A stretch of 64,000 nt of DNA from Steroidobacteraceae bacterium. Its GTDB lineage: Bacteria > Pseudomonadota > Gammaproteobacteria > Steroidobacterales > Steroidobacteraceae. Shown one piece after another: positions 21,421-62,578 of this stretch. A program made the translations under genes and the position numbers. The stretch spans positions 8,769 to 72,768 of the forward strand of contig DASWUU010000155.1 of the NCBI GenBank assembly GCA_036401515.1, in the 5' to 3' direction. Position 1 is the stretch's first letter. Each line of letters opens with the position of its first letter. The notes under the pieces are model-generated. The model was not told the DNA's origin. It was given only the letters and a program-made list of their open reading frames with translations, and searched no databases.

Positions 21421-23010
21421 CCGAAGTTTGAGCTCTTGTTCGGGCAAATAATCAGTGCAGACCGCCCGGGACCAATGACACATATGCTTAATTTGCCAGC
21501 GAAGGGCTGCAAAAAGTCCCACAGGGTCGGGTGTTGGGGGAGAGCGAGGCTGCACATCCGCCATTGCTGGGATCGTGGCTGCGCAGCTGAAGGTGGCGCC
21601 GGCGGCCTGGTCCTTCTATGCGACGCGCGATGAGACCCTCCGCGAGCATCTGCAGGAGCTGCTGGATCGATCGGTGTTGCGGCAATTCGCGCGGGGCGAC
21701 TATCGCGGTCTCACCGAGTGGATGACGCCCCTAGCGATGCAAACCACCCAAGGCATGGTGCTGGCTCAGGCCCTCGCGGAGGAGCTCCGCGTGCGGCACG
21801 TGCTCCTGCCGCCGATCCAGGTAATTGAGCATCTGTGTGCGACCGCGCTGACTCGCGCCGAACGGGCGACCTTCGACCGACTGACGAAGCCGCTGACGGC
21901 AGCCCATCGTGCGGCCCTCGATTCGGTGCTCACCGTTCGCACAGGCGAGGCCACGAGCACGCTCGCGTGGTTGCGCCAGGCTCCGGGAAACCCGAGCGCC
22001 AACGCCGTCCTGGCGCATCTGGCTCGATTGCGTGCCGTGCGTGAACTCGCTCTGCCGGTCGAGCTCGGCCGCGACGTACACCAAAATCGGTTGCTGCGGC
22101 TCGCGCGCGAAGGGGCACAGACCGCGGTCTATCAGATCCAGGAATATGAGAAGTCCCGGCGGTACGCGATCTTGGTCGCAATATTGCTCGACACCATGGC
22201 AACGCTGACGGACGAAACGCTGGAACTGCATGATCGGCTGATTGGGACGTTCTTCAGCAAGGCACGGAGCAAGCACGACCGAGAGTTAGCGGCGGATGGA
22301 CGCGCCGTCAACGAGAAAGTCCGGCTTTATGCGAAAGTCGGTAAAGCGCTGAGCGCCTCCAAGGAGGAGAAGTCGGACCCCTTCGCGGCCATCGAGGCAA
22401 TCCTCCCATGGGAGGCGTTCACGGAATCCGTTGAGCAAGCCGACCAACTGTCGCGTGATGAGGCGTTCGACGCACTGGAACTGATCACCGATTACTTCTC
22501 GACCTTGCGTAAGTACTCCCCGTCCTTCCTGGAAATGTTCGAGTTCCGGGGTGCACCGGTCACCCAGCCCGTCTTGGAAGCGCTGGATGTTCTACGAAAC
22601 ATGAACAGAATCGGCGCCCGCAAGGTTCCCGCCGATGCACCCATGGCATTCGTCCCAACCCGCTGGTCCCGTAGCGTGGGCGTCGGCGACAGCGTTGACC
22701 GTCGATTCTATGAATTCTGCGCCCTCAGTGAACTCAAAAATCGCCTACGCGCCGGCGATCTGTACGTACCTGGCAGCCGACAGTTCCGCAACTTCGATGA
22801 CTACCTCCTTCCGCGTTCGGCGTTCCGCTCGATGCACAGAGAGGGACGCCTCGGGATATCGGTGCCGACGACAGCGACGGCCTATATCGCGGACCGCCTT
22901 CAGATGCTGCGGAGCGCATTGGACGAGACGAACCGGTTAGCGGCGGCGGACGAACTCGTCGATGCGCGGTTGAATGACAAAGGGTTGAAAATCGCGCCGG
23001 TCGAAGACGA
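21421..23010 (+). mobile_element. tnpA: Tn3-family transposase relic (N-terminal half only; degraded 5' end, 3'-truncated)
   Basis: AAQLKVAPAAWSFYATRDETLREHLQEL...VHQNRLLRLAREGAQT...RRYAILVAILLD...LTDETLELHD...DRRFYEFCALSELKNRLRAGDLYVPGSRQFRNFDDYLLP follows the Tn3-family N-terminal layout. The upstream segment GRVLGESEAAHPP is in another frame, with a shift near 21560. Similarity ends after ...KGLKIAPVEDD, and the DDE half is absent. Confidence 0.75.
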
Positions 23011-23074
23011 CAATGGATACTGGATGCCCTCGACAATCACACCAGAATCACGGCGGCCGCCGCGCAGCTGTATT

Positions 23075-23512
23075 TCAAGTGGAGGCAATGTCGTCGCGAG
23101 AAAGTTCGGGTACCGGACTACGAGCAATAGAGCACCCAGTATTCAATTCGCCATGAAGACGCTGCAAGACTATCATTTGCTTGCGCAATTCCCGGCTTTC
23201 TAATCGCAACATGTAGCGTGCGTCGCCGGCGTTGTCGCCCAAACTTATCGCAGCGCGATCGCGCGATTCAGCGCGGCACCGTAACGAATTAATTTCCCCC
23301 GCTAGCATATCGCTCGCGTTTGCTGGGCTCGCTACTCTTCGGTGAAGACAACCTTCATTATCCAACTCCGAGTCATCGACGACCAGCTGCGTTTCCATGA
23401 CAGGCTCACCGCGGCCACGAATGGCCTCCAAAGTAGCTCGGTAATTCGAAACGGCCATCGTGCCCGTCTGAGTGTCGAAGCGAGTGAACAAATAAATATA
23501 AGCGTCGCTCAT
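23075..23512 (-). CDS. hypothetical protein (no recognisable motif)
   Basis: 145 codons from ATG 23512 (MSDAYIYLFTRFDTQTG...), with a weak RBS. The 3' end overlaps the non-homologous tail of the Tn3 ORF. Confidence 0.3.
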   Translation of the reverse strand: MSDAYIYLFTRFDTQTGTMAVSNYRATLEAIRGRGEPVMETQLVVDDSELDNEGCLHRRVASPANASDMLAGEINSLRCRAESRDRAAISLGDNAGDARYMLRLESRELRKQMIVLQRLHGELNTGCSIARSPVPELSRDDIAST

Positions 23513-24029: not shown

Positions 24030-24980
24030 CTAGGCTGTGAGTGCTTCGCGATTTCTGGATTCGCAATGTTTGACCAACCTTTTGATGTTTTGGGCGGTTG
24101 CGGCCATTAGCATTTGTTCTGAGACATGCCGTAGCCGACGTAGCCTAAGTCTACGAAGATTGATTTGCTCCTTAAGCTCGCCAAACAGCGATTCGATCCG
24201 TCGCCGCTCGCGCTGCGAGCATCTATACGCGTCGGTAGTCGCGAGCTCTCGTGCGCGGTCTCGGACCGGTTCAAGCCAATGTCGCAGGAGCGTTCGGCCC
24301 CTACCAGTCGTGCACTGTGTTTTAAGCGAACATCGACCACACCCATTCTTCGGCACACGGTATATGTCGGACTTCGACGGTCGCGTACTACCTACGCATA
24401 CAAGCTGCTCGCCGGCAGGGCATATGTAACAGTTGTTCTCCGGGACAAAGCGGAAATCCTTTCGCGTGAACGCCCCCGTCGTTTGCTTATAGCGATCGAG
24501 AACAGGGATGTGAGGTTCTATGCCTTTGTCGAACACCCACGCTAGAAAGTCGCCCGTGCCATAGCTTGTGTCCGCCGCGAGAACACGAGGAGTGACGCCG
24601 AGGCGCGACTTGATCCGCTCGATCATCGTACGCGCGGCAACAATTTCTCGGCTGAGCCTCGCTGTAGTCGGTTCGACATCCAAGATTACACGGTGAGCAT
24701 TGTCGATCAGATAATTATCAAAATAGCCTAAAATTGCGGCTCCGGTGCCTTTTGTCGTGTAACAAGCGTCTGGATCGGTGGTGGAGACGGTCGCTGTCGC
24801 GGCGCCCTTGTCTGTAGTATCAAAGCCGCTTGGTCCAGGGTCGAGCTCGTCCACCGGATTCAACGTCTCTACTTCCGTCAAGAATTCGCGAACCGTCTTA
24901 GAGACTTTCGCAGCTTCCGCGAGCTCACAGGCTTTCACGCGGCTTGTCCGGCTCAAGCACATCAACGACACGCGCGGCCA
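24030..24980 (-). mobile_element. IS1182-type (IS5-superfamily) DDE transposase, 5'-truncated
   Basis: STTDPDACYTTKGTGAAILGYFDNYLIDNAHRVILDVEPT...VLAADTSYGTGDFLAWVFDKGIEPHIPV...CYICPAGEQL...CGRCSLKTQC...RERRRIESLFGELKEQINLRRLRLRRLRHVSEQMLMAATAQNIKRL. The N-terminal ~100+ residues of the family are absent. Confidence 0.75.
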
Positions 24981-25044
24981 CGCTTCGATCACGATTGGAC
25001 ATATATCCGATCGACGCAAGAGTTCCAGCGTCAACCGCGATGGC

Positions 25045-25470
25045 GCTCTCGTCTGTGGCAACTTGGCGTCCAGCCGATCCCACGGTTGGGCACTCGAAAC
25101 CCAAAGTTCAACCACCGGTTTAAACCAACTAGGATCATTCAGCGTTCCCGCCTTAATCGCGGCGCATCCGGATCCCGCCCTGGCCACCCTCGCAGGCGTT
25201 CGGGTGATCTCGGTGGATCGCCCGGGAATCTGACAGTCCTCTCAACTCAGGAATCGAGCATTATTGAATTGGCCAAGGGACGTCTCTGAAATAGCAGACA
25301 AATTCGGAAGCAAGCGATTCGGGGTCCTAGGCCAGGCTAGCCGATCGGGTTTCCGTCGCACGCTTGTTTTCGTGAGCGCCTCGGTTCGCGACAAACAGGC
25401 GATTGCGTCCATGCCCACCGAAGTGAAACGCGTGGCGATCACTGCCCAATCTGCACCGGTCTTTCTGCAA
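25045..25470 (-). pseudogene. GFA-family (glutathione-dependent formaldehyde-activating-like) relic
   Basis: The C-terminal piece SGCAAIKAGTLNDPSWFKPVVELWVSSAQPWDRLDAKLP is read in the same frame as the IS1182 relic. An upstream piece CRKTGADWAV... is in another frame. Confidence 0.45.
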
Positions 25471-27515: not shown

Positions 27516-29531
27516 TTAGCTCACCCGAGTAGCCTGAAATCCGCATTGAGCCCATCCATCTCGCTGCTTCACCCAAATCTGAGTTGCCACCGCATGCATT
27601 TCGACCGTGTCACCCGTTTGCACGATACGAATAAGCTGCTTGAGTGGACCCGTAACGATGGCTGTTGCACCGATCATGCGTATATCCAAGGAGGGACGTT
27701 CCACCTCGATAATCTCGAACTTCGTGGCCATCGTTGCCATATAAGAGGCCTTGTCTTCCACAGTGCCGTTGGCATGCACGTGAACTAGATCGTCGCTCAG
27801 AAGCGATTTCAGTGTGGGCCAATCTTTGGACACCAAGGCCCTGATGCGCCTGTCCTCCAGTTGCCGGATCACAGTGTCGGTATCTTCAGCCACAGTGTCG
27901 CCGTCCGATGCAGCCGCAGTCAGAGTGCCCGAAGCCTGCGCCAACAAGGCATCGCAATGTGCCGGCAAATTATCGCCCCTCCAGGCCACATGCTGATCGG
28001 GTCGTATGAGTGCGAATCGAGCCTGGTACCGCGCGCGTAAGCGCGAATCAGGAGGCAAAATCACCGCGAGAGGAATGTTTTGGGTCTCGGCAGCGGCGAT
28101 CATCGGCGCAGCGTCGGATCGCGGCTCACTGGTGACTAACAGTGTAAAGCCCGGCCCAAAGTGGTCGTAAAGCGAGGATCCGTCGTCGAGCCAGAGATGC
28201 GGAGCCAGACATCCGGGATACGCTGACGGAACGTACAGCGTTGGATTTTCCGCCGGCGGCGAGGCGTCATCGGGCAAAATTAGAGGTGATTCGTAACGCG
28301 AACCCAGGACGACGCCGAGCGTCTTGAACTCTCGTATCTTGATTGCGAGGATGAGCTCGGATACCTCGTTGCGGGTTGCATCCCCAGCAATGCCCACGTC
28401 TTCCAGGCCTGGTCGGACGAGCTGATTGCCGACTGCGCCGTAGTTATGCACCGCCTCGGCAATCGTGCGCTGGTGTACCGCACGCCGCTCTTGCGCGTAC
28501 GAGGGCAATAATGCGGGTCCTCCCCAGCCTTGCAGGGTGGCGGCGATCTTCCAGCCCAGATCCACCGCATCACCGATGCCCATGTTCATGCCAAAGCCGC
28601 CAAAAGGCGGATGCAGATGACAAGCGTCTCCCGCAAGCATCACGCGAAGCGTCGCATATCGGTCTGCGATTAACTGCTGAGCAGTCCAAGGAAAGTTTGC
28701 GACCACCTCGATTTCAAGATCGCTCAATCCGGAAGAGCGTCTGATAAGATCGACGGGATTGAGCGTCGCCGGGTCGACATTGTTGGCCAACTTGGTGGCG
28801 ATAAAAGACCACAAGCCGTTCTCATCGAGGGGGCTCAATACCGAAGGGACATCATCGTTAACCATCCAGTACATAATTGCGGGACCGTGCGCATGTCGAG
28901 CGGACAGAGTCGGGGCACGGAATATGGTGTTGTAGTTGCGAAATGTGCCGCGATCTCCCTGCATCGTGGCGCCGATTCCTTCCCGTACCGTGCTGCGCGC
29001 GCCGTCCGCGCCGACCAAATAGCGGGCGCTCATCGTACGCGACTCGCCGGTGCTCACATTCCTGAGTACGGCGGAGACGCTTTCGTCAGATTCGACGAAT
29101 GACAGGAGTTCCGTATTGAAGGCCAATGTCACCCCGGGGAGCGAAGTCGCGTGGGTTCGCAGTACTTCCTCCAAGACGTACTGCGGTACCCACTGCGCCT
29201 CCTCTGAATACAAATTGTTGCGCTCGCGGGAGCCGTTCAAGGCATTTTCAAAGCGCGCCAATTCAGGGCCGTTCATTCGCGTGGCAAAAATGATGGTCGA
29301 CGGATAGTCAGGAGACATCGGGGAAGCGGCGCGCAGAGCGTCGGCTATTCCCCAACGTCGCAGATGCTCACGAGTCCTGACATTAGTGGTTTTTGCTCGC
29401 GGGCTATATCCAACCCGATCATTGCGTTCGACCACCACGCACTTGATGTTGCGCTGACCCAATTCAATGGCAGCGGCGAGGCCCACCGGACCGGCCCCGG
29501 CAATCAGTACATCGACTTGACTGTCAGTCAC
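27516..29531 (-). CDS. PheA/TfdB-type FAD-dependent aromatic monooxygenase fused to a C-terminal NTF2-like (DUF4440/SnoaL-like) domain
   Basis: GTG 29531 overlaps the upstream stop (GTGA). VDVLIAGAGPVGLAAAIELG, RAKTTNVRTREHLRRWGIA, GADGARSTVRE, GDACHLHPPFGGFGMNMGIGDAVDLGWKIAATLQGWGG. After ...RPDQHVAWRGD come a linker (AAASDGDTVAEDTDTV) and a 120-aa IRQLEDRRIRALVSKDWPTLKSLLSDDLVHVHANG...VWVKQRDGWAQCGFQATRV domain. Confidence 0.85.
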   Translation of the reverse strand: MTDSQVDVLIAGAGPVGLAAAIELGQRNIKCVVVERNDRVGYSPRAKTTNVRTREHLRRWGIADALRAASPMSPDYPSTIIFATRMNGPELARFENALNGSRERNNLYSEEAQWVPQYVLEEVLRTHATSLPGVTLAFNTELLSFVESDESVSAVLRNVSTGESRTMSARYLVGADGARSTVREGIGATMQGDRGTFRNYNTIFRAPTLSARHAHGPAIMYWMVNDDVPSVLSPLDENGLWSFIATKLANNVDPATLNPVDLIRRSSGLSDLEIEVVANFPWTAQQLIADRYATLRVMLAGDACHLHPPFGGFGMNMGIGDAVDLGWKIAATLQGWGGPALLPSYAQERRAVHQRTIAEAVHNYGAVGNQLVRPGLEDVGIAGDATRNEVSELILAIKIREFKTLGVVLGSRYESPLILPDDASPPAENPTLYVPSAYPGCLAPHLWLDDGSSLYDHFGPGFTLLVTSEPRSDAAPMIAAAETQNIPLAVILPPDSRLRARYQARFALIRPDQHVAWRGDNLPAHCDALLAQASGTLTAAASDGDTVAEDTDTVIRQLEDRRIRALVSKDWPTLKSLLSDDLVHVHANGTVEDKASYMATMATKFEIIEVERPSLDIRMIGATAIVTGPLKQLIRIVQTGDTVEMHAVATQIWVKQRDGWAQCGFQATRVS

Positions 29532-30370
29532 GGGATTGCAAAGAGCAAGTTTGGGGGCCCGACGGCTTTCAATTCGCGAAGCATCAAACGAAGTTCGCTT
29601 GCGAAAGTTGCGGCGTCCGCCTGATAGGACAGATGGTGTCCGGAAATTACTCGGTGGACGCATCCCACCACGTCGCTGACTATTTTTGCTGTCCGCGCAT
29701 AGTAGGCATCCTTGCTGTCGCGCCCCGAAACCGCAAACATAGGAATCTTGGTGTGCTTGATGCGCTGTAGATCGGGAGCATAGCGGCTGAAATTGTGTAT
29801 CTCATGGGCAAAGAAGAAATTCCAACTCACTTCCACCGCCTTAGCCGCATCTGAGCCCGTCGGTGGTCGGCTTGGGGGTGTGACTCCCACCAGCGCGCTG
29901 GCAAACTTACCGAGGGCTGGCCCAAATCCGCGAGCTCGAAAAATCGTCTCCGCCTCGTCGCCAAAGATAAACCACTCCTGAGCGTCGGGCAGAACCCAAA
30001 GAACAGGGGGCTCGTGCGCAACCAAGCCGGCGATATACTGCGGCGTGTCCTCCGCCATCTTCAGGGCAATATTTGCCCGCGAGCTGCTCCCGAAAACTAG
30101 TGCTTGCTTCGCATTCATTGCCTTGATCACTGCGACCGCATCGCGCGCTTGTTGCGCGATATCCCCGTCGAGTGAACGATCGCCCGTGCTGCGCGAATTG
30201 CAACGGCGGTCATAGCAAACAACCGTGTATTCGTCCTTTAAAATTGTCGATACGGCTGCATAGCGCTGCCCCGAGCCGCCGGCACCAGGAATGAGCAGAA
30301 GCAGCGGCCCTTCGCCTTCATAGTCAATGTGAATTTCCGCGCCTTCGTTCTCCACTGTCGCGTTCGTCAT
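29528..30370 (-). CDS. alpha/beta hydrolase (atypical nucleophile elbow)
   Basis: ATG 30370 overlaps the upstream stop (ATGA). LLLLIPGAGGSG..VVCYDRR; the elbow reads LVFGSSSRANIAL; ...AHEPP. Confidence 0.75.
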   Translation of the reverse strand: MTNATVENEGAEIHIDYEGEGPLLLLIPGAGGSGQRYAAVSTILKDEYTVVCYDRRCNSRSTGDRSLDGDIAQQARDAVAVIKAMNAKQALVFGSSSRANIALKMAEDTPQYIAGLVAHEPPVLWVLPDAQEWFIFGDEAETIFRARGFGPALGKFASALVGVTPPSRPPTGSDAAKAVEVSWNFFFAHEIHNFSRYAPDLQRIKHTKIPMFAVSGRDSKDAYYARTAKIVSDVVGCVHRVISGHHLSYQADAATFASELRLMLRELKAVGPPNLLFAIP

Positions 30371-31236
30371 GTGCCGTCTCCTGACGAAGGTCTTTCCACT
30401 GCGCATTGTAGAGCGAAGCCCAACTGCTGCAGCTGCAAAGCAGGGCCGACAGCGTGCAACTCCATACAGTGACCGGTATTGCGGATCATGGCGGCGTCCA
30501 CGCGGGGTGCAGCAGAGAAACGCCGCGCGAACGCTTCAACTTCGTCTTTATCTACGATCCACAGTCGGTCCTGCTCCGCCTGCCGGTAATGCACGGGAAC
30601 GCGCACGCTGGAGCAGATCGCTGCGGCTTGCGCCTGCCATCCGCCGACGATGTCGATAAGCTCTGCTTTGGGCACTGGTGCATCGGTGGCGTGGCTTGCT
30701 GCCGCTACGGCAGGGTCAAAACTGCCCGGGGGCCCGAACATCAGCTGGTCCTTAACTGCCGCAGGCATCTCAACGGTAGGCAAATCCGGGAGTGAGTTCC
30801 ACATCGCAGAGTGCGCGGCGGGCGTTCGTACGCCGATTCCTGACACGGCAATGCCCAATAAAGGGAGTTCTCCGGGATTGCCGGCCACGCCGAGAGCGAT
30901 AGCAGCGCCGATCGAATGACCGATCAAGACAACGCCATTCGCATCGGCGCGGTACTGAGTCCAAACGTCGTTGAGTGCGCCGCTGAGGAGTGCCGCCTGC
31001 CCGAGAATGCTCATGTCGTCGATGAACGGCGTCTTGCCATATCCGTACCGATCAATTGCGATTGCCGTGATTCCATTTCTTTCAGCCTGATCCAGCAGCG
31101 AATGACCGTCGACATCGAAGTACGCGGAGGTATAAGTTCCACCGTGAATAGCGATAACCAGTGGTCGCGTACCTCCCGACGCCTGTGAGATGGAAGCGCG
31201 GCCGCTAAAGACGCCGAATCGTCCTGTCGCTCTCAT
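30367..31236 (-). CDS. alpha/beta hydrolase
   Basis: ATG 31236 overlaps the upstream stop (ATGA). LVIAIHGGTYTS, elbow VLIGHSIGAAIAL, C-terminal NTGHCMELH. Confidence 0.8.
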   Translation of the reverse strand: MRATGRFGVFSGRASISQASGGTRPLVIAIHGGTYTSAYFDVDGHSLLDQAERNGITAIAIDRYGYGKTPFIDDMSILGQAALLSGALNDVWTQYRADANGVVLIGHSIGAAIALGVAGNPGELPLLGIAVSGIGVRTPAAHSAMWNSLPDLPTVEMPAAVKDQLMFGPPGSFDPAVAAASHATDAPVPKAELIDIVGGWQAQAAAICSSVRVPVHYRQAEQDRLWIVDKDEVEAFARRFSAAPRVDAAMIRNTGHCMELHAVGPALQLQQLGFALQCAVERPSSGDGT

Positions 31237-32729
31237 GGCAGACTGTCCTGTGCGCGGGTTTCGAGCGCATCAAGGTCGGCCCGGCTGAGATAACGTCCGG
31301 CACGGACCACTGCAGATACCCGGTGCAGGTTCGCAATAGCCTTGGTCGGATCGGCGTCGAGGAGTACCAAATCAGCGTTTTTCCCGCGCTCGACCGTGCC
31401 CATGGTTGTTTCGCGCTGCAGAAACCTCGCCGGATCAACCGTCGTCATCTGCAAAACGCGAAGGGGTGAGACCCCTGCTCGGGCGAGCAGATCGAATTCG
31501 TGATGCAACGAGAATCCCGAAACGATCCACTGACCGCCGAAGTCGGTGCCGGTCAACATTTTGACACCAGCTTTATCGAAGAGCCCAGTGAGTCGCAATT
31601 GGGTCTCGAACAACTCTGCCAGCAGCTTGCGCTGATCCGGCGTCAGCTTTTCGTCGAATTCGTTGCCGACATCCCGCCAAAGTGCACGCGACTCGGTAGG
31701 CGCGTAACGCTGATCCGGATTGTCCCTGAGAGCAGGCGTGTTGCCCAATTCCATCGCCTCCAGGCGTGTTAGCGTCGGCACCATCCAGGTTGAGCTCGCC
31801 GCCACTTCTGCGGCAAAGGCACGACACTTCTCTCCATCGTAGGTCTCAAGCACGCGGTGCATGAGCGCGAAGCCTTGGGGCGGAGTGAGCAGAAGCGGGT
31901 TCGCGAGCATCCGCCGCACCTGTTCAGGTTCGGCGTTGAAGTGTGAACCGCCGCCTGAACCCAACGGAATCGCGGCAATCATTGATCGGAGGGCAGCATC
32001 GTCGCGCGAGCAGTTGAGCAGCAGGGTAATGCCGGGTCCGAGATGTTCCACTGAGTTCATTCCGCGACGAATGGCCTCCCGCGCATCTAAGGCCAAGGGA
32101 AGATGCCCGGAAATGGGCAGCCCGTTTTCTCGCGCGGCGTCCTCCGCGGCAAAGAAAGCGGCCGGAGGCACATCGATCACCTTGATGAAATCCGCGCCTT
32201 GCGCTTTCTGGCGGCCGATCTCCGCAACCGCCGCGGCGGGATCGGCGAATGCCGCGCCGGCGAGGATGGTCCCCGGCATGGCGAGCAGGGCCGGAGAGTC
32301 GGGCGGCATCCGGGTTTTGCGGGCTGCGCGCTTCGCCAACAGTTCCGGTGAACCTGCCATCTGGCGAAAGCCTGTGACGCCGTTCGCGAGCATCAGCGGC
32401 AGGCTCGTCTCGGGGCTCTCGGTATTGAGGTTGTGCGCATGCATGTCATTGAAGCCGGGAACGACGAAGCGACCATTGCCTTCTATGAGTCGTCCCGCGC
32501 CGGTCACCCGGACGGTGCCGCCGCGCGCTACCTCGACAATCTTGCCGTCAGCAACGACCAGGGCGCGATCCCGCACCAGTTGTCCGGTGCGGACGTCGAC
32601 GACGACCACGTGGTCGAGTACAAGGCCTGTGCGAACGGTTTCCGGCTGCGCGGCGCCCGCGCGGCCGACGTTCAGTGCCACTAGAAGACCCAGCGCTCCC
32701 AGGTCACGCGGTCGCAAGTGTGACTTCAT
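31233..32729 (-). CDS. metal-dependent amidohydrolase (COG1228-like), periplasmic
   Basis: AGGAGAG then ATG 32729. Signal MKSHLRPRDLGALGLLVALNVGRAGAA. Then VVPGFNDMHAHN, ...SVEHLGPG..., TGTDFGG, GTVERGKNADLVLLDADP. Confidence 0.85.
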   Translation of the reverse strand: MKSHLRPRDLGALGLLVALNVGRAGAAQPETVRTGLVLDHVVVVDVRTGQLVRDRALVVADGKIVEVARGGTVRVTGAGRLIEGNGRFVVPGFNDMHAHNLNTESPETSLPLMLANGVTGFRQMAGSPELLAKRAARKTRMPPDSPALLAMPGTILAGAAFADPAAAVAEIGRQKAQGADFIKVIDVPPAAFFAAEDAARENGLPISGHLPLALDAREAIRRGMNSVEHLGPGITLLLNCSRDDAALRSMIAAIPLGSGGGSHFNAEPEQVRRMLANPLLLTPPQGFALMHRVLETYDGEKCRAFAAEVAASSTWMVPTLTRLEAMELGNTPALRDNPDQRYAPTESRALWRDVGNEFDEKLTPDQRKLLAELFETQLRLTGLFDKAGVKMLTGTDFGGQWIVSGFSLHHEFDLLARAGVSPLRVLQMTTVDPARFLQRETTMGTVERGKNADLVLLDADPTKAIANLHRVSAVVRAGRYLSRADLDALETRAQDSLP

Positions 32730-32783
32730 TCGAAACTCTCCTGCGTACAAACACGGCACCTTGCTCGCGCTGCCGCGATCTTG

Positions 32784-35225
32784 TCAGCGTCCAAACCGTG
32801 CAGAGACACGGAGGCCAAATGTGCGTGGCGCCGTGGTACCCACGGTGAGAAAATTCGCAGTCGGATGGGTCGAGTTGAACACCTGGACACGGTTGTCTTC
32901 GATGTTCTGGACGTAAGCGGCAATGGTCCAATGTTCGCTCGTCGGGCCGAATGATAGTTGGGCATTGGTTACCCAGTCCGCGGCAGCGACCTGCTCAGGT
33001 AAGTAGGCAAAGCCAATCGCGCGACTGCTCTTGTATTGCGTATCGACTCCGGCGATGAGCCGGTAGTTGCCGAGCGGTATCGTCTGCTGGCCGGCGAGGT
33101 TCACTGTCCATCTTGGAGAGTTATAGGAGGGTTGCCCCGCGCAGTTGATCAAGTAGGGTGAAGCGTTGGCGACGGCATAGGTGACCTGGCAGCCCGTAAG
33201 CGGCGGGGTGCCAGGGCCCGCGAGATAGCTGAACTGCAGCTGCTTGGCGTCGAGATACTGAAGGTCGGCGCTGAGAAGTGTCGTCGGTGTGGCCAGAAAC
33301 CGAGCTTCGACTTCGCTGCCCTCAATGCGTGACTTGCCGACATTCTGCGTGTAGTTCGCGGTCTGTCCGTGGATATCGAGACCGACGTGATTGACCTGCT
33401 GGTTGGTGTAGTTCCACAGAAACGCTTCGAGGTTCAATTGAACACGATTGTCGACGAAGCGGTTTTTCGCTCCAAGCGTGTAGGCTGTGATGTACTCCGG
33501 CTGATAGGTCTCGAATCCTGCTGCGGCCGAGAAGCCGCCAGAACGGTAGCCTGACTCGACACTCGCATAGAGAAGCGAACTTGGCGTGAGATCGAACTCC
33601 GCAGCCCCGCGATACGTCGTTCGACTGCTGGAGAGATTCCGGTTGATCCTGCTGTCAGTACGGATAATGAGATAGTTCGGAGGACCTGGCGATGTAAAGA
33701 CTGGGATCGGAGGCGCGCCGGCAGCAGGAAAGGGAAAGCCTAGCTGTGCCGATTGGTTGAACAGCGGTACGTACGGCGCCGTCGGACAATTGGGTGCGCC
33801 GAACGCGTTTACCGCGAGACAGTCCACGATAGCAGTGATTGCAGAATAGTTGAAGCTCTTGTCGTCCTTCGTATAGCGCAGACCGCCCACGAGTCGAAAC
33901 CGGTCAGTCAGGTTCGCGACCAAGCGGCCAAAGCCCGCATAGGACTTCGTGCCCAAATCCTGATCGATGTAGTTGCCCAGGTTGGAGAGGGACAGCGATA
34001 CGCGCTCATGAATCGTTTCATTGTAGAAGAATCCGCCGACGGTGAAATCGAAGATGCCCACGCGAGTTGCAGCGAAGCGGGCTTCGAGGCTGGTCTGATC
34101 GTCGGTCTCAAGGTCCTGATAGGCGAACGCAGCTGCGGGCGCGAGATAGTTCAATTCAGCGTGCCGGAATGCGGGAATGACAGTCACCGTGCCGGCAGCG
34201 GAATTTTGCTCGATATCGGCGTTGAAGCCATAGAAGCTGTTGTCCTGATAGGGATATGGCGCAAGAGCATTCAGCGTGCTTCCGTAGGGTCCAAACGGTG
34301 TCGCTTGACGATAGGCTTGAGACGCAGCGCCGAAAACTCCACCATCGTTGGGAAGTCCCGATGGCAGGAAGGTGTAATAGTTGGTGCCTGGCACGGGAGT
34401 CGCTGAGCGCGGGACCCGCGGGTTAAATGCATAGCGTCCGTCGTAGTTGACGCTGTTACCGACGCCGCCGTCGTGAGAGTAATCACCGGCCACACGTACC
34501 GTCAGATCGGGCGTGAATTCCGCCTTCGCTTGCAGACGCACTGCCCAGGTTTTTTGGTCATCGGTCCCGTCTCTGAAGTATGCATCATGATTTGCCGTCG
34601 TGGCGGACGCCCGCAGGGCAATCTTGTCTCCTACAGGAACGTTGATCGCGCCTTCCGCGTTAATAGTGTTGTAGTTTCCGTAGGTTAATGTGGCGTAGCC
34701 GGACGCTTCCCCCAGCTTTGGCTGGGCGGGCAGCACGTTGATCGCACCGCCCGTCGCGTTGCGGCCGTACAAAATGCCTTGGGGGCCTTTGAGCACCTCG
34801 ATGCGATCGAGATCATAGAACACGCCGGTGGTGGAGGTGGGTCTGCCGACATAGACACCGTCGTAGTTAAATGCGACTGCAGGATCGCTTGTTGCGACCA
34901 AGGTGAAATTGCCGACCCCACGGATAAAAATCAAATTGCCGGTGCTGCTGGGCTCGATCGACAGTGCGGGTACGAGTTGGTTTAGGCGATCCGCCTGGGT
35001 AACCCCGGCGTTCGTCAGAGCAGCGCCATCAACGATCGACAGCGGTATCGCGGCGTGCTGCGCACTTTCGGACTTACGCTGGGCTGTTACAATGATCTCT
35101 TCGAGCTGATTCCCGCCATTCGTGGTCGCGCTCGTCTGGGCGTTGGGCACCGTCTGCGCGAACCCCGTTGCCATAAAAAGCGCGAGTGAGGCGGCGATGG
35201 GGATTAAGTGAAGTCGCGTAAACAT
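32784..35225 (-). CDS. TonB-dependent receptor
   Basis: Signal MFTRLHLIPIAASLALFMATGFA. TonB-box/plug region QLEEIIVTAQRK...IEVLKGPQGILYGRNATGGAINV, followed by a long beta-barrel ending ...RTFGLRVSARFGR. Confidence 0.9.
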   Translation of the reverse strand: MFTRLHLIPIAASLALFMATGFAQTVPNAQTSATTNGGNQLEEIIVTAQRKSESAQHAAIPLSIVDGAALTNAGVTQADRLNQLVPALSIEPSSTGNLIFIRGVGNFTLVATSDPAVAFNYDGVYVGRPTSTTGVFYDLDRIEVLKGPQGILYGRNATGGAINVLPAQPKLGEASGYATLTYGNYNTINAEGAINVPVGDKIALRASATTANHDAYFRDGTDDQKTWAVRLQAKAEFTPDLTVRVAGDYSHDGGVGNSVNYDGRYAFNPRVPRSATPVPGTNYYTFLPSGLPNDGGVFGAASQAYRQATPFGPYGSTLNALAPYPYQDNSFYGFNADIEQNSAAGTVTVIPAFRHAELNYLAPAAAFAYQDLETDDQTSLEARFAATRVGIFDFTVGGFFYNETIHERVSLSLSNLGNYIDQDLGTKSYAGFGRLVANLTDRFRLVGGLRYTKDDKSFNYSAITAIVDCLAVNAFGAPNCPTAPYVPLFNQSAQLGFPFPAAGAPPIPVFTSPGPPNYLIIRTDSRINRNLSSSRTTYRGAAEFDLTPSSLLYASVESGYRSGGFSAAAGFETYQPEYITAYTLGAKNRFVDNRVQLNLEAFLWNYTNQQVNHVGLDIHGQTANYTQNVGKSRIEGSEVEARFLATPTTLLSADLQYLDAKQLQFSYLAGPGTPPLTGCQVTYAVANASPYLINCAGQPSYNSPRWTVNLAGQQTIPLGNYRLIAGVDTQYKSSRAIGFAYLPEQVAAADWVTNAQLSFGPTSEHWTIAAYVQNIEDNRVQVFNSTHPTANFLTVGTTAPRTFGLRVSARFGR

Positions 35226-35754
35226 GGATTTCTCTCCCAAGTGTCTTTTATTCGGCTCGCCAGTTCGCTGGTGGAACGCCGTTCTTTATGAATCGTGCCA
35301 GCAAGCAAAATTTCCTTTCCTGTGGATTGGCATGCGATGCCAATGAGGAAGACCCGGACCATTGGGGTTTTTGCGAGCGGCGGCGCCGTGTAAGGAATAT
35401 TCTCGAAAACCAGAGCGCCATCAGCATTCCGGTCCGCACCCACAATGTAGCCTTGCGGTTACCAGCGCTCGGCGGTCGAGCGCCGCAGGCTCGGCTAGTG
35501 CCGTCAACGCGGACATGATCGTCAGCGAAGCTGCCAGCATGATCCGCGGCATCGATGTCATCACCAAGCCGACCCCCATTTTTTTAATCGCCGAGCCAAC
35601 TACGAAAAAGTATCACCAGGTGTTGGCGGCGAGGAGATAGCATCATTGCGCGTGCGATGCTCAGAACACATCGCCCCCAAAATATAGGCTACCTGTACAC
35701 TCCAACCATACGTCGCCTTGCGCAGAGCCTGTACTGCAGATTGAAGGGGGAGTA

Positions 35755-36555
35755 GTGATGAGTCTCGACAACATTTACTTTACCCGCTGGGGCGATACCG
35801 GTCCGCGCGTCGTTTTGGTTCATGGCAGTGCCCAGGGCAGCAAGGTCGGAGGTGCTAGGCACTTCGCGCGCCAAGCGCATCTTGGCGTACAAGGTTGGCA
35901 GTTGATTGTTCCCGACCGACCCGGCCATGGCCGCAGCCCGTCACCCGGGCGCCCTGATGATGCTGAGGCCGATGCGGTGTGGGTTGCACAATTGCTCGGA
36001 GACGGTGCCCATCTCGTCGGCCATTCATTCGGCGGCACAGTGGCGCTCGCGGCCGCGGCGCGCAGGCCCGAGGCAGTACGCTCACTGACCGTGATCGAGC
36101 CGGCGATGCTGCCGCTCGCGATAAAAAGTCCGCATGTACGCCGCGTGATCTTGAGCATGATCTCGATGCAAATCTTCTCGCTGTCGGACGCGTCGCGCGC
36201 GCGCAAGATCTCTCGGCTGCTGGGTATACCCGACGAAATCCGGGGCGAATCGGACCATGCCGAGCTGACCGCGGTAGGGCGTAGCCTGAGGAAGCTTAAG
36301 GTACCTGCGAAGGCTGACATTCAGCGCGAATTAATTCTTATCCGCGACGCCAACATTCCGCTGATGGTCGTGACCGGCGGCTGGAGCCCGGCGTTCGAAG
36401 CGACCAGCGATGCCGTGGCGGCGTTGGGAGGCGGTCGCCGCGTCGTCATCCAGTCTCCGCATCACTTTCCGCAAAATATCTCAGAAGAATTCAATGCGAC
36501 TCTTGTCGCTTTCATGCGCGAAGCTGATGCGAGTCGTGCAGTCGCGGTGGTCTGA
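35755..36555 (+). CDS. alpha/beta hydrolase
   Basis: GAAGGGGGAG then GTG/ATG 35755/35758. VVLVHGSAQG, PDRPGHGRS, elbow HLVGHSFGGTVAL, C-terminal SPHHFPQ. Confidence 0.8.
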   Translation: MMSLDNIYFTRWGDTGPRVVLVHGSAQGSKVGGARHFARQAHLGVQGWQLIVPDRPGHGRSPSPGRPDDAEADAVWVAQLLGDGAHLVGHSFGGTVALAAAARRPEAVRSLTVIEPAMLPLAIKSPHVRRVILSMISMQIFSLSDASRARKISRLLGIPDEIRGESDHAELTAVGRSLRKLKVPAKADIQRELILIRDANIPLMVVTGGWSPAFEATSDAVAALGGGRRVVIQSPHHFPQNISEEFNATLVAFMREADASRAVAVV

Positions 36556-36574: not shown

Positions 36575-37427
36575 TTAAGCCACCACGTTTTCAATGACTC
36601 CGATGCCCTCAATTTCGCAACGGACTACATCGCCTTTTTTTGGAAATTGAGGAGGCTTCATGCCAATCCTAGCGCCATCCGGTGTACCGGTAGCGATAAG
36701 ATCCCCTGTTTCAAGAGTGAATGCGGTTGATAGGTAGCTGGTTTGTTGCCAGATGTTGTAGATCAATTCGGCCGTAGTGCTTTCTTGGCGCTTGACGCCG
36801 TTTACCAGGCAGCGCAGTGCGAGATCATGCGGGTTGGGCACTTCGTCCGCAGTCACAATCCATGGGCCCTGGGTCCGTGAGTATCGAATGATTTGCCCAC
36901 TGTGAACGTCGGTGAATGGAACTGCCAGTCACGGGCGGTAGACATCGTTCGCCACGAAGTAGCCGAATACATGGCTGCTAGCGTCGGCTTCTTGGACGTG
37001 TTTCGCAGGCGCGCCAATCATGCCGCCGAGCTCGACCTCGTAATCGAGCTTCTCGGTGACACCGGGCCCAATCGGGTCGAAGGGGCCCGAGATGCAAGAA
37101 GTCTGCTTTGTTGAATCACAGCTGCTGCTTCGGGGCCGGTACGCCGAGACCCACCGCTTCCTCGAGGTGCTTGCGATAATTCATGCCGATGGCGAGGTAC
37201 TTACCTGGTCGCTCGATGGGTGCAAGCAGCCGGACCGAAGCGAGTGGAATGCTGGCTTGGGTCGTTGAGATGTGCGCCGCCAACCGCTCCAGCGCGGGAG
37301 CGCCCCCAGACACGACGGCTTGAATGGTCGGGAATTCACGGTTCAAGGCATCTAGGGGTACGATGCTTTCACCCTTCAGTGCGCCCAAGTAAATTCTACT
37401 GGCTTGCTCGTATCTCAAAAATCGCAT
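36575..37427 (-). pseudogene. fumarylacetoacetate hydrolase (FAH)-family gene with three frameshifts
   Basis: GGAGAAAAAG then ATG 37427, MRFLRY...LLAPIERPGKYLAIGMNYRKH...PKQQL* (TGA at 37116-37118). The next frame reads KQTSCISGPFDPIGPGVTEKLDYEVELGGMIG...VFGYFVANDV, ending at TGA 36929-36931. The block STARDWQFHSPTFTVGKSFDTHGP is in a third frame. Reading then returns to GPWIVTADEVPNPHDLALRCLVNG...GDLIATGTPDG. Confidence 0.7.
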
Positions 37428-37661
37428 GAATCTTTTTCTCCTACGGGAGACTGGGTGGACAAAAGCAGCAGTCTGGCGGATCCGGAATTTACCGAACAGA
37501 CGGCTTTTCCAGTAATCCGACACCGAAGTAGGATCGGCTCGACCCCCAGAATGCCAGCAGCAGAGTGATGCTCAATGAGCATCGCGCGAATGCTTTCACC
37601 ATCGTGGCGGACTGGGGACGCGGCCTTATCCTACTGAGATAGAAAGGGGAGAAGCAACTTC

Positions 37662-38240
37662 ATGCCGCACGTCAAACCGATCAAATTCGCGCATGTCGTC
37701 TATCGCACGCGACGTTTTGAGCAGATGGTGCACTGGTACAAAACGGTGTTCGATGCCAAGGAGCAATTCAAGAACGAAATGCTGGCCTTTGTCACCTACG
37801 ATGATGAACACCACCGCGTCGCCTTGGTCAATCTTGGGGTGTTGGACCCGGGAGGCGCGCCGACGGAACGGCGTGGCAAGATCGGTGTTGATCACGTGGC
37901 ATACACCTACCAAACCTTGCGCGATTTGCTCGAGAACTATGCGCACTTGAAAGCTCTCGGGATCGAGCCTTACTGGGCTATTCACCATGGCGTCACCGTA
38001 TCACTCTACTACGCCGATCCCGACGGCAATCAGATGGAATTTCAAGTCGATAGCTTTCCAACCAACGAAAAAGCCAATGCTTATATGTATGGCCCCAATT
38101 ACGCCGCAAATTCGCTGGGAGTGGAGTACAACCCCGATGAATGGCTCACGCGCCTTCGCGCTGGCGAACCGGAATTGGGAATGCTTTTGCGCAGTAGGGA
38201 TGAGCCGATATCGCCGTTCCGAGGCTCGTTGGTCCAGTAA
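37662..38240 (+). CDS. VOC-superfamily protein (single-module extradiol-dioxygenase-like)
   Basis: GGGGAGAAG then ATG. FAHVVYRTRRFEQMVHWYKTVF...HHRVALVN...GVDHVAYTY...GVTVSLYYADPDGNQMEFQVD. Confidence 0.75.
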   Translation: MPHVKPIKFAHVVYRTRRFEQMVHWYKTVFDAKEQFKNEMLAFVTYDDEHHRVALVNLGVLDPGGAPTERRGKIGVDHVAYTYQTLRDLLENYAHLKALGIEPYWAIHHGVTVSLYYADPDGNQMEFQVDSFPTNEKANAYMYGPNYAANSLGVEYNPDEWLTRLRAGEPELGMLLRSRDEPISPFRGSLVQ

Positions 38241-39405: not shown

Positions 39406-39577
39406 ACATGGGGGAGAGGGAGGGCGTCTGGCTTTCGGCGATACAGCAATCACATCGCCGCTCTTCTCAGGCGATGCAACTCAGGCATCGCCGTAACGCT
39501 TTGGGTTCTATCCCCTCGAGACGGACGAATTATGCTGTCGGCTTCCGGGCCTTTTGTCCCGTCGAGGAGCAATCGAG

Positions 39578-40681: not shown

Positions 40682-40776
40682 GCCGCGATGCGCTTCCGGT
40701 ATCGCCACGATAAACTTCGCATCTGGCCGCTTCCTGCGCCATCTGCCAGCTTTACATCGACAAGGGGACTCTTCTC

Positions 40777-42267: not shown

Positions 42268-42290
42268 CTCGCGCAACAGTCTAGAGCCGC

Positions 42291-43855: not shown

Positions 43856-45514
43856 GTGATGTCCGCGGTTCCAAACATTAAGCCAAGAGTGGTCATCGTC
43901 GGCGCGGGCCCCGTGGGCATCGCGACTGCGATTGAGTTGGGACAAAGATCCATCTCTTGTGTAGTAATTGAGCGCAACAATCGCGCCGGGAACGCGCCGC
44001 GCGCCAAGACTACGCATACGCGAACGCGTGAACATCTGCGGCGGTGGGGAATCGCGCAGCGGCTGGCAGAGGCCGCGCCCTTCGGTATCGAATATCCGCC
44101 CAATGTCGTGTTTGTTACACGACTGGCCGGTCCTGAAATTACGCGCTTCGAGGGATCACTGTATTGCTCTCCAAAGCGCGATGAGCGCTACTCGGAACAC
44201 AGTCAGTGGATTCCGCAGTACAAGCTCGAAGCGGTTTTGCGGGACCACGCTAAGACATTACCCTGTGTCGACATTCAGTTCGGAAAAGAGTACCTATCTT
44301 GCGAACAGGATGAGCGCGGAGTGCACGTGCACGTGCGCGACTGTGCCAGCGGCAGTGAACAGCGCCTCGATGCGGAATATCTGGTAGGCGCTGATGGCAG
44401 CCGCAGCGCGGTGCGAGAATCCATTGGCGCAAAAATGGTCGGCACCTATGGCCTGTCTCGCAACTATAACACGATTTTCAAGGCGCCGGGCCTTGCCGGG
44501 GCGCACCGGCACGGACCCGGCATCATGTATTGGCAGTGCAACTCGGAGGTTCCAAGTCTAATCGGTCCGATGGACAGCGACGATGTCTGGTTCTTCATGC
44601 CCATGCAGCTGGGCCCCGGCGTGACATTTACGCCAGAGCAGACGGTGGAGCGAATCCGCACAGCTACCGGCATCGATCTGCCTTATCAGATATTGAGCTC
44701 CGATGAATGGGTGGCGAATAAACTGCTCGCTAACCGCTACCGCAAAGGGCGCGCATTCCTGGTGGGCGATGCCTGTCATCTGCATCCGCCGTTCGGCGGA
44801 TTTGGCATGAACATGGGCATCTCAGACGGCGTCGACATCGGCTGGAAACTGGCGGCGGTGTTGCAGGGTTGGGGCGGCGAGATCTTGCTCGACAGTTACG
44901 AAGTCGAGCGGCGTGCGGCGCATGAAGTCGTTCTGGAGGAATCCGATGCCAATCATTCGCAGCTGCCGGGACAGCTGGCGCGCGAGGGCATCGAGGAACT
45001 CACGCCTAGGGGGGATGAGGTGCGTCGCGAAGTCGCCGAGCTGGTGAAGCGTACCAAACACCGAGAGTTCTTCGCGCTCGGGGTCATGCTTGGCTACAGC
45101 TACAAAGGTTCGCCCATTGTGGTGAGCGACGGCCGGCCGAGCGGCTGGTGCCGCTCGCTCGACTATGTGCCGACGGCGGAGCCTGGCTGCCTCGCACCAC
45201 ATCGGTGGCTCTCGGACGACAAGTCCTTGTACGATCTCTTCGGCTTAGGTTTTACGCTGCTGGCGCTCGATGATGTCGATGCGCGGGACTTGGACGTCGC
45301 GGTCAGTGAGGCGCGCGCTGCAGGAGTGCCGATGGATGTCCTTCGCCTACCAGACCCTGCGCTACGGGAGCTGTATCAAGCCAAACGCGCGCTGATCCGG
45401 CCGGATCAGCATGTGGCATGGCGCGGCGATGCCTGGCCTGCCAATGAGGTACTCGCCGTCGCCTGTGGGCTATCGCGCCGGCATTCGGTACCGGAAGTCG
45501 CCAGTCTCGCTTGA
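43856..45514 (+). CDS. PheA/TfdB-type FAD-dependent aromatic monooxygenase (paralog 2, no extra domain)
   Basis: VVIVGAGPVGIATAIELG, RAKTTHTRTREHLRRWGIA, GADGSRSAVRE, GDACHLHPPFGGFGMNMGISDGVDIGWKLAAVLQGWGG, RPDQHVAWRGD. 552 aa. Confidence 0.9.
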   Translation: MMSAVPNIKPRVVIVGAGPVGIATAIELGQRSISCVVIERNNRAGNAPRAKTTHTRTREHLRRWGIAQRLAEAAPFGIEYPPNVVFVTRLAGPEITRFEGSLYCSPKRDERYSEHSQWIPQYKLEAVLRDHAKTLPCVDIQFGKEYLSCEQDERGVHVHVRDCASGSEQRLDAEYLVGADGSRSAVRESIGAKMVGTYGLSRNYNTIFKAPGLAGAHRHGPGIMYWQCNSEVPSLIGPMDSDDVWFFMPMQLGPGVTFTPEQTVERIRTATGIDLPYQILSSDEWVANKLLANRYRKGRAFLVGDACHLHPPFGGFGMNMGISDGVDIGWKLAAVLQGWGGEILLDSYEVERRAAHEVVLEESDANHSQLPGQLAREGIEELTPRGDEVRREVAELVKRTKHREFFALGVMLGYSYKGSPIVVSDGRPSGWCRSLDYVPTAEPGCLAPHRWLSDDKSLYDLFGLGFTLLALDDVDARDLDVAVSEARAAGVPMDVLRLPDPALRELYQAKRALIRPDQHVAWRGDAWPANEVLAVACGLSRRHSVPEVASLA

Positions 45515-45518
45515 GCAA

Positions 45519-59388: not shown

Positions 59389-59490
59389 GCCGATGCCGTG
59401 TTTAGATCACATCAGCCTAGTCCCTTTCATGACCAAGTGAAACTGGTCGGCTGCCGTTCCGGTCTTGCCGTCGCGAAACCACTATTCTGG

Positions 59491-60108: not shown

Positions 60109-60255
60109 GGATGACTTGACCCTCGTGCTGCTGAGAGAGGGAGACAGCAGGCTTCCCCCGATCTGTGGTCGGCGTTTAAATATCGAGCCCTCGCCCGCGA
60201 AAGGCCTACAGAAGATATCGGCGGAGAGCAAGTCGGCTTCATACTTAAACCCCGG

Positions 60256-62463: not shown

Positions 62464-62578
62464 TTTCTTTCCCCCGTTGCGGACGTTCTATGGTCGCGAT
62501 TGCGGTATGAGAAGTCCGATTACTGACGTGAGCGTTGACCAGCAACCTGCACCTCGACCGATTTGTTGTTCTCGTCAA

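Follow-up and report, generated by a model that had tools for sequence, protein, structure and literature searches.

A group A flavin monooxygenase fused to an NTF2-fold DUF4440 domain in a catabolic operon of a Steroidobacteraceae bacterium

We examined a stretch of 64,000 nucleotides from a Steroidobacteraceae bacterium (GenBank assembly GCA_036401515.1, contig DASWUU010000155.1), referred to as the window here, and focused on a minus-strand gene (27516..29531, GTG start) that encodes a 671-amino-acid fusion of a flavin adenine dinucleotide (FAD)-dependent monooxygenase with a C-terminal DUF4440 domain. The fused protein consists of two modules joined by a flexible tether and is under purifying selection. 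It represents an uncommon, single-origin variation, by domain fusion, on a well-known class of enzymes and not a new kind of enzyme or system. The added domain is most likely the tethered form of a free-standing pathway protein, linked to the pathway and not specifically to the product of the hydroxylase. The main value of the finding lies in a functional lead for the DUF4440 subfamily concerned and for a widespread, unannotated aromatic catabolic gene block.

The fused protein and its relatives

An identical protein, together with the same upstream operon genes, is encoded on an independent Logan assembly of SRR11271805 (contig L093). As relatives, we surveyed the 120 best matches among 5.8 billion clustered proteins. 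Eight of these matches are further 90%-identity clusters (P0001 to P0008) that carry FAD_binding_3, Rng_hyd_C, and DUF4440 in frame; counting the window protein, 9 of the 121 closest relatives are fused. The eight proteins are 670 to 700 amino acids long, 94 to 70% identical to the window protein, and all metagenomic (JGI, ENA, Logan). From P0009 on (∼73% identical; Bosea, Roseiarcus, and others), the relatives are unfused and ∼553 amino acids long. In a neighbor-joining tree built only from the monooxygenase part, the fused proteins, nine in number, group together to the exclusion of all others, indicating that the fusion arose once. A tblastn search with the last 250 amino acids against 72,556 plasmids yielded 107 records, none of them across the junction, and a megablast search of the operon against plasmids gave nothing useful.

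Within the fused clade, mean identity is 81% for the FAD domain, 73% for the middle and C-terminal part of the monooxygenase, and 67% for DUF4440, compared with 14% for the linker, whose length ranges from ∼18 to 35 amino acids and whose sequence is unconserved. The GC content at third codon positions (GC3) is 0.65 in the monooxygenase part versus 0.62 in the DUF4440 part, i.e., there is no compositional break at the junction. The residues that are invariant in the DUF4440 subfamily (see below) are all kept in the window domain, in P0001 to P0008, and in the fragment P0132. A reading made earlier from the sequence alone (the sequence-only reading) had named an assembly error as a possible source of the fusion; the independent assembly, the eight diverged clusters, and the conserved domain rule this out.

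The minus-strand open reading frame (ORF) extends over 27516..29663, and reading it from the ATG at 29663 gives 715 amino acids. We rejected this ATG as the start, since every homolog starts at the GTG at 29531 (start codon, 29531-29529; stop codon, 27516-27518). This GTG and the TGA stop codon of the hydrolase gene upstream share the sequence GTGA, and the called public product P0356 (671 amino acids) is identical to the GTG-start reading. On these three grounds, GTG 29531 is the true start. The protein consists, in this order, of FAD_binding_3, Rng_hyd_C, a linker of 19 amino acids, and a DUF4440/NTF2-fold domain of 117 amino acids. The FAD_binding_3 domain of group A flavoprotein monooxygenases (28458..29516, minus strand as for all parts of the gene; Pfam E value of 3.9e-76) contains the N-terminal GxGxxG dinucleotide-binding motif as GAGPVG (29481-29498, residues 12-17), the DG motif as GADGARS (28992-29012, residues 174-180), and the GD(x)6P-type motif GDACHLHPPFGGFGMNMG (28578-28631, residues 301-318). 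Rng_hyd_C, the thioredoxin-like C-terminal domain of aromatic-ring hydroxylases, lies at 27954..28220, corresponding to residues 482-570 of the 715-amino-acid ORF (Pfam E value of 1e-11, 45.5 bits versus a cutoff of 27.5), and has the motif RPDQHVAWRGD (27972-28004) inside it. NCBIfam model NF004780 (PRK06126) scores 590.1 bits for the fused protein versus a cutoff of 445, and the equivalog models (RdmE, MbnF, MhpA, and others) all score under their cutoffs. By these sequence features, the protein is a RebC/PRK06126-type group A FAD monooxygenase, for which NAD(P)H-dependent hydroxylation of a phenolic compound is predicted.

The linker TLTAAASDGDTVAEDTDTV (27870..27926) has an acidic composition, with many Ala and Thr residues. 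Behind it, the C-terminal domain (27519..27869) was assigned to an “HxH” subfamily of DUF4440 by Pfam, AlphaFold2, Foldseek, and its invariant residues; its motifs are DDLVHVHANG (27765-27794), ATQIWVK (27567-27587), and FQATRVS (27519-27539). The sequence-only reading had quoted linker and domain exactly as they stand in the DNA, within an interval (27516-27930) made up of the stop codon, the domain, the linker, and one more upstream codon. Its call of an NTF2/DUF4440-like domain of ∼120 residues agrees with the Pfam match in the 715-amino-acid ORF (residues 599-704, E value of 1.5e-16, 61.2 bits versus a gathering cutoff of 25.2) as well as with the structural results described below. The isolated domain scores 64.8 bits with DUF4440, and the last 139 amino acids alone give an E value of 1.2e-17. 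The profile check that the sequence-only reading had proposed placed FAD_binding_3 and DUF4440 above their cutoffs and, among the SnoaL models, SnoaL_3 marginally so (23 to 27.5 bits versus 22, with 27.5 for the last 139 amino acids). For the domain, SnoaL_2 (16 to 20 bits versus 27) and SnoaL_4 (15 versus 24) remained under the cutoff, and NCBIfam gave neither a match nor a curated name.

The same reading had described the domain as an extension without counterpart in a second monooxygenase of the window, and Pfam indeed finds DUF4440 only in the fused protein. This unfused paralog (43856..45514, plus strand; 552 amino acids, 50% identical to the fused protein) consists of FAD_binding_3 and Rng_hyd_C, lacks a DUF4440 match in Pfam, and stops 27 residues past RPDQHVAWRGD. 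It belongs to PRK06126 too (NCBIfam, 554 bits versus 445, with no equivalog).

AlphaFold2 predicted the full protein from a 106-sequence alignment with a mean predicted local distance difference test score (pLDDT) of 86 and a predicted template modeling score (pTM) of 0.76. The pLDDT dropped below 50 only at residues 540-548, in the linker, and was 94 to 98 in the DUF4440 part. Predicted alone, the domain reached a pLDDT of 96.6 and a pTM of 0.89, with helices at residues 4-20, 24-29, and 47-56 and six strands; in this model, the three helices pack on a curved six-stranded sheet as an α+β cone. Residues 1-535 match RebC both in sequence (phmmer E value of 3.5e-87) and in structure (Foldseek to 4eip_A, E value of 3.1e-47, target-normalized template modeling [TM] score of 0.92 over 536 columns), followed in Foldseek by PieE, HbpA, and RdmE. 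All 43 PDB sequence matches to the full protein end at or before residue 535. For the domain, Foldseek retrieved the NTF2-like structural-genomics proteins 3ksp, 2r4i, and 3fsd (TM scores of 0.83 to 0.89) and, more distantly, BaiE, LinA, SgcJ, limonene epoxide hydrolase, and the CaMKII hubs; BaiE, LinA, and limonene epoxide hydrolase resemble it by fold alone, at 12 to 18% identity. A sequence search of the PDB with the domain returned no chain better than an E value of 0.2, and the domain-family profile reached only designed NTF2 ligand binders, 3fsd, 2r4i, and CaMKII hubs. In profile alignments, H31 is aligned with a core/pocket Phe of 3fsd and 2r4i, and Q98-x-W100 corresponds to the R-x-W of DUF4440 and CaMKII-hub proteins; this suggests that H31, Q98, and W100 may line the cavity of the cone.

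The HxH subfamily and the role of the fused domain

An exhaustive HMMER search of 1.84 billion representatives yielded 1,860 relatives of the domain at an E value of ≤1e-3 and 214 at ≤1e-10, nearly all of the latter 120 to 135 amino acids long. The closest ones are free-standing proteins of that size that are up to 54% identical to the domain, and the subfamily is sizeable, comprising hundreds of clusters at 50% identity. Its alignment contains the invariant residues R9, H31, H33, R59, G75, Q98, W100, and W107, the nearly invariant residues E6, Y44, Q79, and T97, and the signature motifs DDLVHxHANG, ATQxW, and FQAT. The HxH motif is specific to the subfamily, with Phe and Asp/Ile at these positions in 3fsd and 2r4i. 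The subfamily profile matches the window ORF at an E value of 3e-52, and the conserved set E6, R9, H31, H33, Y44, R59, G75, Q79, Q98, W100, and W107 is complete in the window domain. Among the domain relatives are also proteins with three to six tandem DUF4440 repeats (P0138, 1,169 amino acids; P0249, 730 amino acids; P0220; and P0153), of which at least P0249 has a signal-peptide-like N terminus.

The domain is fused to other partners as well, namely, to an FdeC-like VOC protein (P0209; hhalign probability of 100%), to an α/β hydrolase (P0178), and to an HbpS-like fragment (P0150), and the same conserved set is complete in all three. Given that the fusions keep all conserved residues, the tethered domain is under the same constraints as the free protein. 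Pfam searches of an Acidovorax locus (L025) and of the context of the VOC::DUF4440 fusion (L094) added nothing. The three fusions to monooxygenase, VOC protein, and α/β hydrolase serve as a “Rosetta stone” that ties the DUF4440 subfamily to an aromatic catabolism block of hydroxylation, extradiol cleavage, and C-C hydrolysis, resembling the flavonoid and isoflavone A-ring pathways of root-associated bacteria.

The genomic company of the domain points to the same block. Loci of the fused clade have the order LysR, TonB-dependent receptor, monooxygenase::DUF4440, VOC (∼200 amino acids), and α/β hydrolase; the set of monooxygenase, VOC, and hydrolase is present in L001 to L004 and L095, often with Rieske/VanA-type oxygenases nearby. 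At the locus of the nearest unfused monooxygenase (P0024, L092), a free-standing DUF4440 gene whose product is 42% identical to the domain sits between a VOC gene and an FAA hydrolase gene, in a unit divergent from LysR and the monooxygenase. In Caballeronia, the DUF4440 gene is accompanied by flavin reductase, pyruvate dehydrogenase E1 (PDH-E1), E2, VOC, and FAA hydrolase genes, and in Sphingobium japonicum UT26 (L009) by VOC, TonB receptor, and amidohydrolase genes, the last two being orthologous to those of the window operon; this DUF4440 gene lies within 1358707-1371087 of AP010803.1.

We surveyed metagenomes for subfamily genes by profile and obtained 59 loci, 25 of which are informative, that is, have flanks on both sides. 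An FAA hydrolase lies within 300 nucleotides of the subfamily gene in 21 of the 59 loci (9 of the 25 informative ones), a PDH-E1-like gene (63 to 74% identical to 45411-48224 of the window) within 4 kb in 14, an FdeC-like VOC within 3 kb in 9, and a PRK06126-type monooxygenase within 8 kb in 5 (4 of the 25 informative ones); FAA hydrolase, VOC, and monooxygenase are all missing from 10 informative loci. As direct neighbors, FAA hydrolases rank first, before PDH-E1-like proteins and FdeC-like VOCs, and PRK06126-type monooxygenases are rarer. Orthologs of the PDH-E1-like gene also occur in L001, L008, and L095, and a thiamine-dependent step seems to belong to the pathway.

A different NTF2-like gene, of the SnoaL_4 type, adjoins the FdeC-like VOC gene in 16 of 80 VOC-centered genome loci, including those of Variovorax (probable ifc clusters); examples are L045 (10557-10982), L059 (5721-6131), and L022 (10570-10977). 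The ifc pathway as published assigns it no role. Bosea operons have the order VOC, SnoaL_4, FAA hydrolase, monooxygenase, and TRAP transporter. We considered and rejected the SnoaL_4 protein of Bosea as an equivalent of the DUF4440 domain (hhalign probability of 0.2%), as the two share an operon position with no detectable homology. Neither the VOC nor the SnoaL_4 protein has a curated name in NCBIfam.

Three observations argue for a domain that serves the whole pathway: its FAA hydrolase and VOC neighbors are commoner than monooxygenases, it lies between dioxygenase and hydrolase genes in the sister lineage, and it is fused to three different pathway enzymes. In our favored reading, the fused domain would do the same job as the free-standing protein: it would bind a labile carbonyl or enol intermediate, probably one with a carboxylate, or convert it by acid-base chemistry in the manner of a tautomerase, isomerase, or dehydratase. 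This intermediate would arise after hydroxylation, either as the new diol or, more probably, as the ring-fission product en route to the C-C hydrolase. The tether would ensure 1:1 coexpression and colocalization with the first pathway enzyme, and hydroxylation itself would not require it. The substrate, which is the weakest step of this proposal, is probably a bulky plant phenolic (flavonoid-like or lignin-derived) that would enter via the TonB receptor. An acid-base (tautomerase/isomerase-like) or intermediate-binding role around the ring-cleavage steps is favored because the subfamily combines an invariant His-x-His, Tyr, Arg, and Gln with the fold of cofactor-free isomerases and dehydratases, and because the dienol product of ring fission commonly needs to take the diketo form for FAA-type or meta-cleavage-product hydrolases. 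We assign this statement as a whole a probability of about 0.5.

Several observations weigh against it. The best PDB relatives of the domain are structural-genomics proteins of 12 to 23% identity, and we found no functionally characterized homolog. The positions of the pocket residues, and any contact between the two modules, are putative. In the fused clade, the neighbor of the VOC gene encodes an α/β hydrolase and not an FAA hydrolase, so that one substrate shared by all these clusters is not obvious. The free-standing genes occur in heterogeneous contexts, with FAA hydrolase, VOC, and monooxygenase all missing from 10 of 25 informative loci. None of the 80 VOC-centered genome loci, which are biased to relatives of the window's own VOC, holds an HxH-subfamily gene, showing that the VOC association is not universal. 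FdeR (sequence from the supplement of PMC10799723; BLASTP at an E value of <1e-10) matches no ORF in the window or in the fused-clade loci, and the flavonoid reading is an analogy only.

The sequence-only reading had instead proposed product channeling from the hydroxylase to an NTF2-type second step. In such a model, the domain would act on the monooxygenase product (for example, by tautomerization, dehydration, or ring opening), which the tether would deliver from the flavin site. The proposal is partly supported: the fusion exists, is uncommon, and has been kept by purifying selection, but the neighboring genes and the other fusions tie the domain to the pathway and not specifically to the hydroxylase product, and we regard channeling as rather unlikely. 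It would fit the retention of the fusion with intact invariant polar residues across a clade reaching down to 70% identity, the position of the domain-coding segment between the monooxygenase and VOC coding sequences in the fused-clade loci, and the existence of pairs of FAD oxygenases with NTF2-like proteins such as Lsd18/Lsd19, XimD/XimE, and SnoaW/SnoaL2. In Bosea-type operons, moreover, the NTF2-like SnoaL_4 gene occupies the fdeD position between VOC and monooxygenase, and a citing paper states that naringenin hydroxylation in Herbaspirillum requires an “FdeED complex” (PMC8552027). Against channeling, the free-standing proteins are more often found with FAA hydrolases and PDH-E1-like proteins than with monooxygenases (4 of 25 informative loci within 8 kb), a dioxygenase and a hydrolase carry the domain as well, and the sister lineage has it between the genes for such enzymes. 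Purified IfcA hydroxylates isoflavones partner-free, and FdeE is reported to be active alone on flavonoids (PMC11069340; PMC11303751). Finally, a linker that is long, variable, and predicted to be disordered argues for proximity instead of a sealed channel.

A noncatalytic role, in which the domain would be an oligomerization, stabilizing, or ligand-buffering module, such as a hub that brings the pathway enzymes together or a carrier for a poorly soluble substrate, appears more doubtful still. Among its nearest relatives in structure and sequence are CaMKII association (hub) domains as well as NTF2 scaffolds binding sterol-like ligands, the SnoaL-like domain of JsFMO stays clear of the active site (PMC10028610), the occurrence of the domain on three different enzymes of a single pathway suits a scaffold or carrier, and the TonB-receptor context suggests bulky hydrophobic substrates. 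However, polar residues that stay invariant at 35 to 50% identity, here two His, one Tyr, two Arg, one Glu, and two Gln, are more typical of catalysis or specific recognition than of a generic surface for oligomerization, and most members of the subfamily are free-standing proteins encoded inside operons beside enzymes. An origin of the fusion as an artefact or as read-through without function (by mis-assembly, a frameshift, or recent loss of a stop codon) is extremely improbable and was rejected: the rarity of the architecture (8 of the 120 best matches and none among the 72,556 plasmids) would suit it, but the identical protein on an independent assembly, eight further diverged clusters monophyletic with the window protein, a domain conserved with its invariant residues next to a varying linker, and the even GC3 all speak against it.

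Returning to the favored reading, a bolder version can be put forward tentatively and as a possibility on the unlikely side. The HxH subfamily may be a new NTF2-fold family of cofactor-free tautomerases, isomerases, or dehydratases that act on a labile diol or ring-fission intermediate of a widespread plant-phenolic route (monooxygenase, FdeC-like dioxygenase, FAA-type or α/β hydrolase, and PDH-E1-like enzyme), perhaps as the missing post-dioxygenase step of flavonoid A-ring degradation. Under this version, the fused gene would encode a naturally bifunctional hydroxylase/isomerase, with a tether that links the first step to a later one. If true, the subfamily may fill a step of flavonoid A-ring degradation that has no assigned gene.

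The operon and the surrounding genes

The fused gene belongs to a minus-strand operon whose first gene encodes a TonB-dependent receptor (32784..35240), 54% identical to its counterpart in S. japonicum UT26 (L009) and 67% identical to that of a Sphingomonas metagenome-assembled genome (L066). The receptor gene is followed by an Amidohydro_1/3-family metallohydrolase gene (31233..32759), whose product is 53% identical to the S. japonicum UT26 protein encoded ahead of the free-standing DUF4440 gene, and by two α/β hydrolase genes identified by Pfam. One of them (30367..31236; Abhydrolase_6) is also present on L093; the other (29528..30406) is directly upstream of the fused gene, overlaps it stop to start, and has the same order on L093.

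On the plus strand, a divergent α/β hydrolase gene (35755..36555) encodes a protein 57 to 58% identical to the hydrolase downstream of the VOC in other fused-clade loci. Its counterpart follows the VOC gene directly in L001 and L002, and two genes (NmrA-like and aldo-keto reductase) separate the two in L003 and L004. The FdeC-like single-module VOC of the window (37662..38240, plus strand), a glyoxalase-fold protein and putative extradiol dioxygenase, is 39 to 45% identical to the VOCs that adjoin fused or free DUF4440 genes and 32 to 34% identical to Bosea-type VOCs; it belongs to the module of the unfused paralog. These related VOC and α/β hydrolase genes sit 6 to 10 kb from the fused gene, and since their counterparts follow the fused gene in other loci of the clade, the window cluster appears rearranged. 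An NHL-repeat gene separates the fused gene from mobile-element remnants a few kilobases downstream, namely, a Tn3-family transposase fragment (DUF4158; 21575-23203) and a DDE transposase (24030-25187).

An FAA-family hydrolase gene, divergent from the VOC gene, is split into a C-terminal piece (36575-36856; PF01557) and an N-terminal piece (37116-37523; Rv2993c-like_N), both on the minus strand and ∼260 nucleotides apart. It is probably a pseudogene and occupies the position of the intact FAA hydrolase genes in related clusters. The unfused paralog is preceded on the plus strand (38404-43733) by genes for an Amidohydro_2 protein (decarboxylase-like), an iron-dependent alcohol dehydrogenase (maleylacetate-reductase-like), an aldehyde dehydrogenase, and an MFS transporter, a set that also flanks the sister unfused monooxygenase in L092. 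The homodimeric PDH-E1-type gene (45411-48224, plus strand) scores above the cutoff of NCBIfam TIGR03186, annotated as “alpha-ketoglutarate dehydrogenase, not PDH.” A third module (58378-63999) holds a LysR gene (58378-59388), a SnoaL_4 NTF2-like gene (59491-60231), and a TonB-dependent receptor gene (60256-62463), all on the minus strand, as well as a divergent third PRK06126-type monooxygenase gene from 62863 on the plus strand, which leaves the window at its right edge, so that the C terminus of this paralog lies outside. At the other end, a plus-strand gene of the RPE65/carotenoid-oxygenase family (6596-8095; lignostilbene-dioxygenase-like, E value of 9e-111) is consistent with a catabolic island for plant phenolics or lignin-derived compounds.

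Comparison with known systems

In the A-ring pathways for naringenin in Herbaspirillum (fde) and isoflavones in Variovorax (ifc), an FAD monooxygenase is followed by a glyoxalase-type dioxygenase and a hydrolase (PMC11069340). Purified IfcA hydroxylates isoflavones at C8 and IfcB cleaves the ring, and the conversion of X2 to X3 after the dioxygenase step is still without an identified gene in ifc (PMC11069340); FdeE is reported to act on flavonoids (PMC11303751). The fused-clade loci share with these systems the order of monooxygenase, FdeC-like VOC, and hydrolase together with LysR, and PDH-E1-like and NTF2-like genes recur in such clusters. In contrast to the window protein, FdeE and IfcA are unfused, and the Variovorax monooxygenase of the probable ifc locus is a weak match to the profile of the window monooxygenase. 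The literature search found no NTF2 protein in flavonoid catabolism. A flavonoid link through the regulator was rejected, as FdeR matches no LysR gene of the window or of the fused loci. Among all fetched loci, its matches are confined to LysR genes of L009, L005/L006, and L096/L098/L099 (30 to 34% identical, full length), and these genes directly adjoin the closest free-standing relatives of the domain. The loci in question also hold a Rieske dioxygenase α/β pair, a cytochrome P450, and a PRK06126-like monooxygenase.

With the RebC/StaC-type enzymes (PDB 2r0c and 4eip), residues 1-535 share the FAD-binding, middle, and thioredoxin-like domains and the GxGxxG, DG, and GD motifs, but no solved or named member has a fourth, NTF2-like domain. 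RebC, moreover, works in indolocarbazole biosynthesis, whereas the operon of the fused gene is catabolic and also encodes a TonB receptor and hydrolases. The sequence-only reading had known of no characterized enzyme with this architecture, and we likewise found none among the 43 PDB matches or in a literature search for group A monooxygenases fused to DUF4440, SnoaL, or NTF2 domains, which retrieved only JsFMO. This type II flavin-containing monooxygenase (FMO; PDB 8ACS) has an N-terminal SnoaL-like domain that makes no contact with the active site (PMC10028610). It is similar in that a long linker joins a flavin monooxygenase to an NTF2/SnoaL-fold domain, and it differs in being a class B enzyme (two Rossmann domains, Baeyer-Villiger monooxygenase/FMO chemistry) whose extra domain is N terminal and from another NTF2 family.

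The NTF2-fold proteins 3ksp, 2r4i, 3fsd, and 3rob as well as BaiE, LinA, SgcJ, and limonene epoxide hydrolase have their fold in common with the domain (TM scores of 0.67 to 0.89) but differ in sequence (12 to 23% identity), and the HxH motif is missing from 3fsd and 2r4i. FAD oxygenases also occur with separate NTF2-like partners, as in the pairs Lsd18/Lsd19, MonCI/MonB, XimD/XimE, and SnoaW/SnoaL2, where the NTF2-fold protein acts on the product of oxygenation or contributes to hydroxylation. Unlike the window protein, these pairs are biosynthetic and unfused, and their NTF2-fold members come from limonene epoxide hydrolase/SnoaL-type families whose likeness to the HxH domain, as far as shown, lies in the fold.

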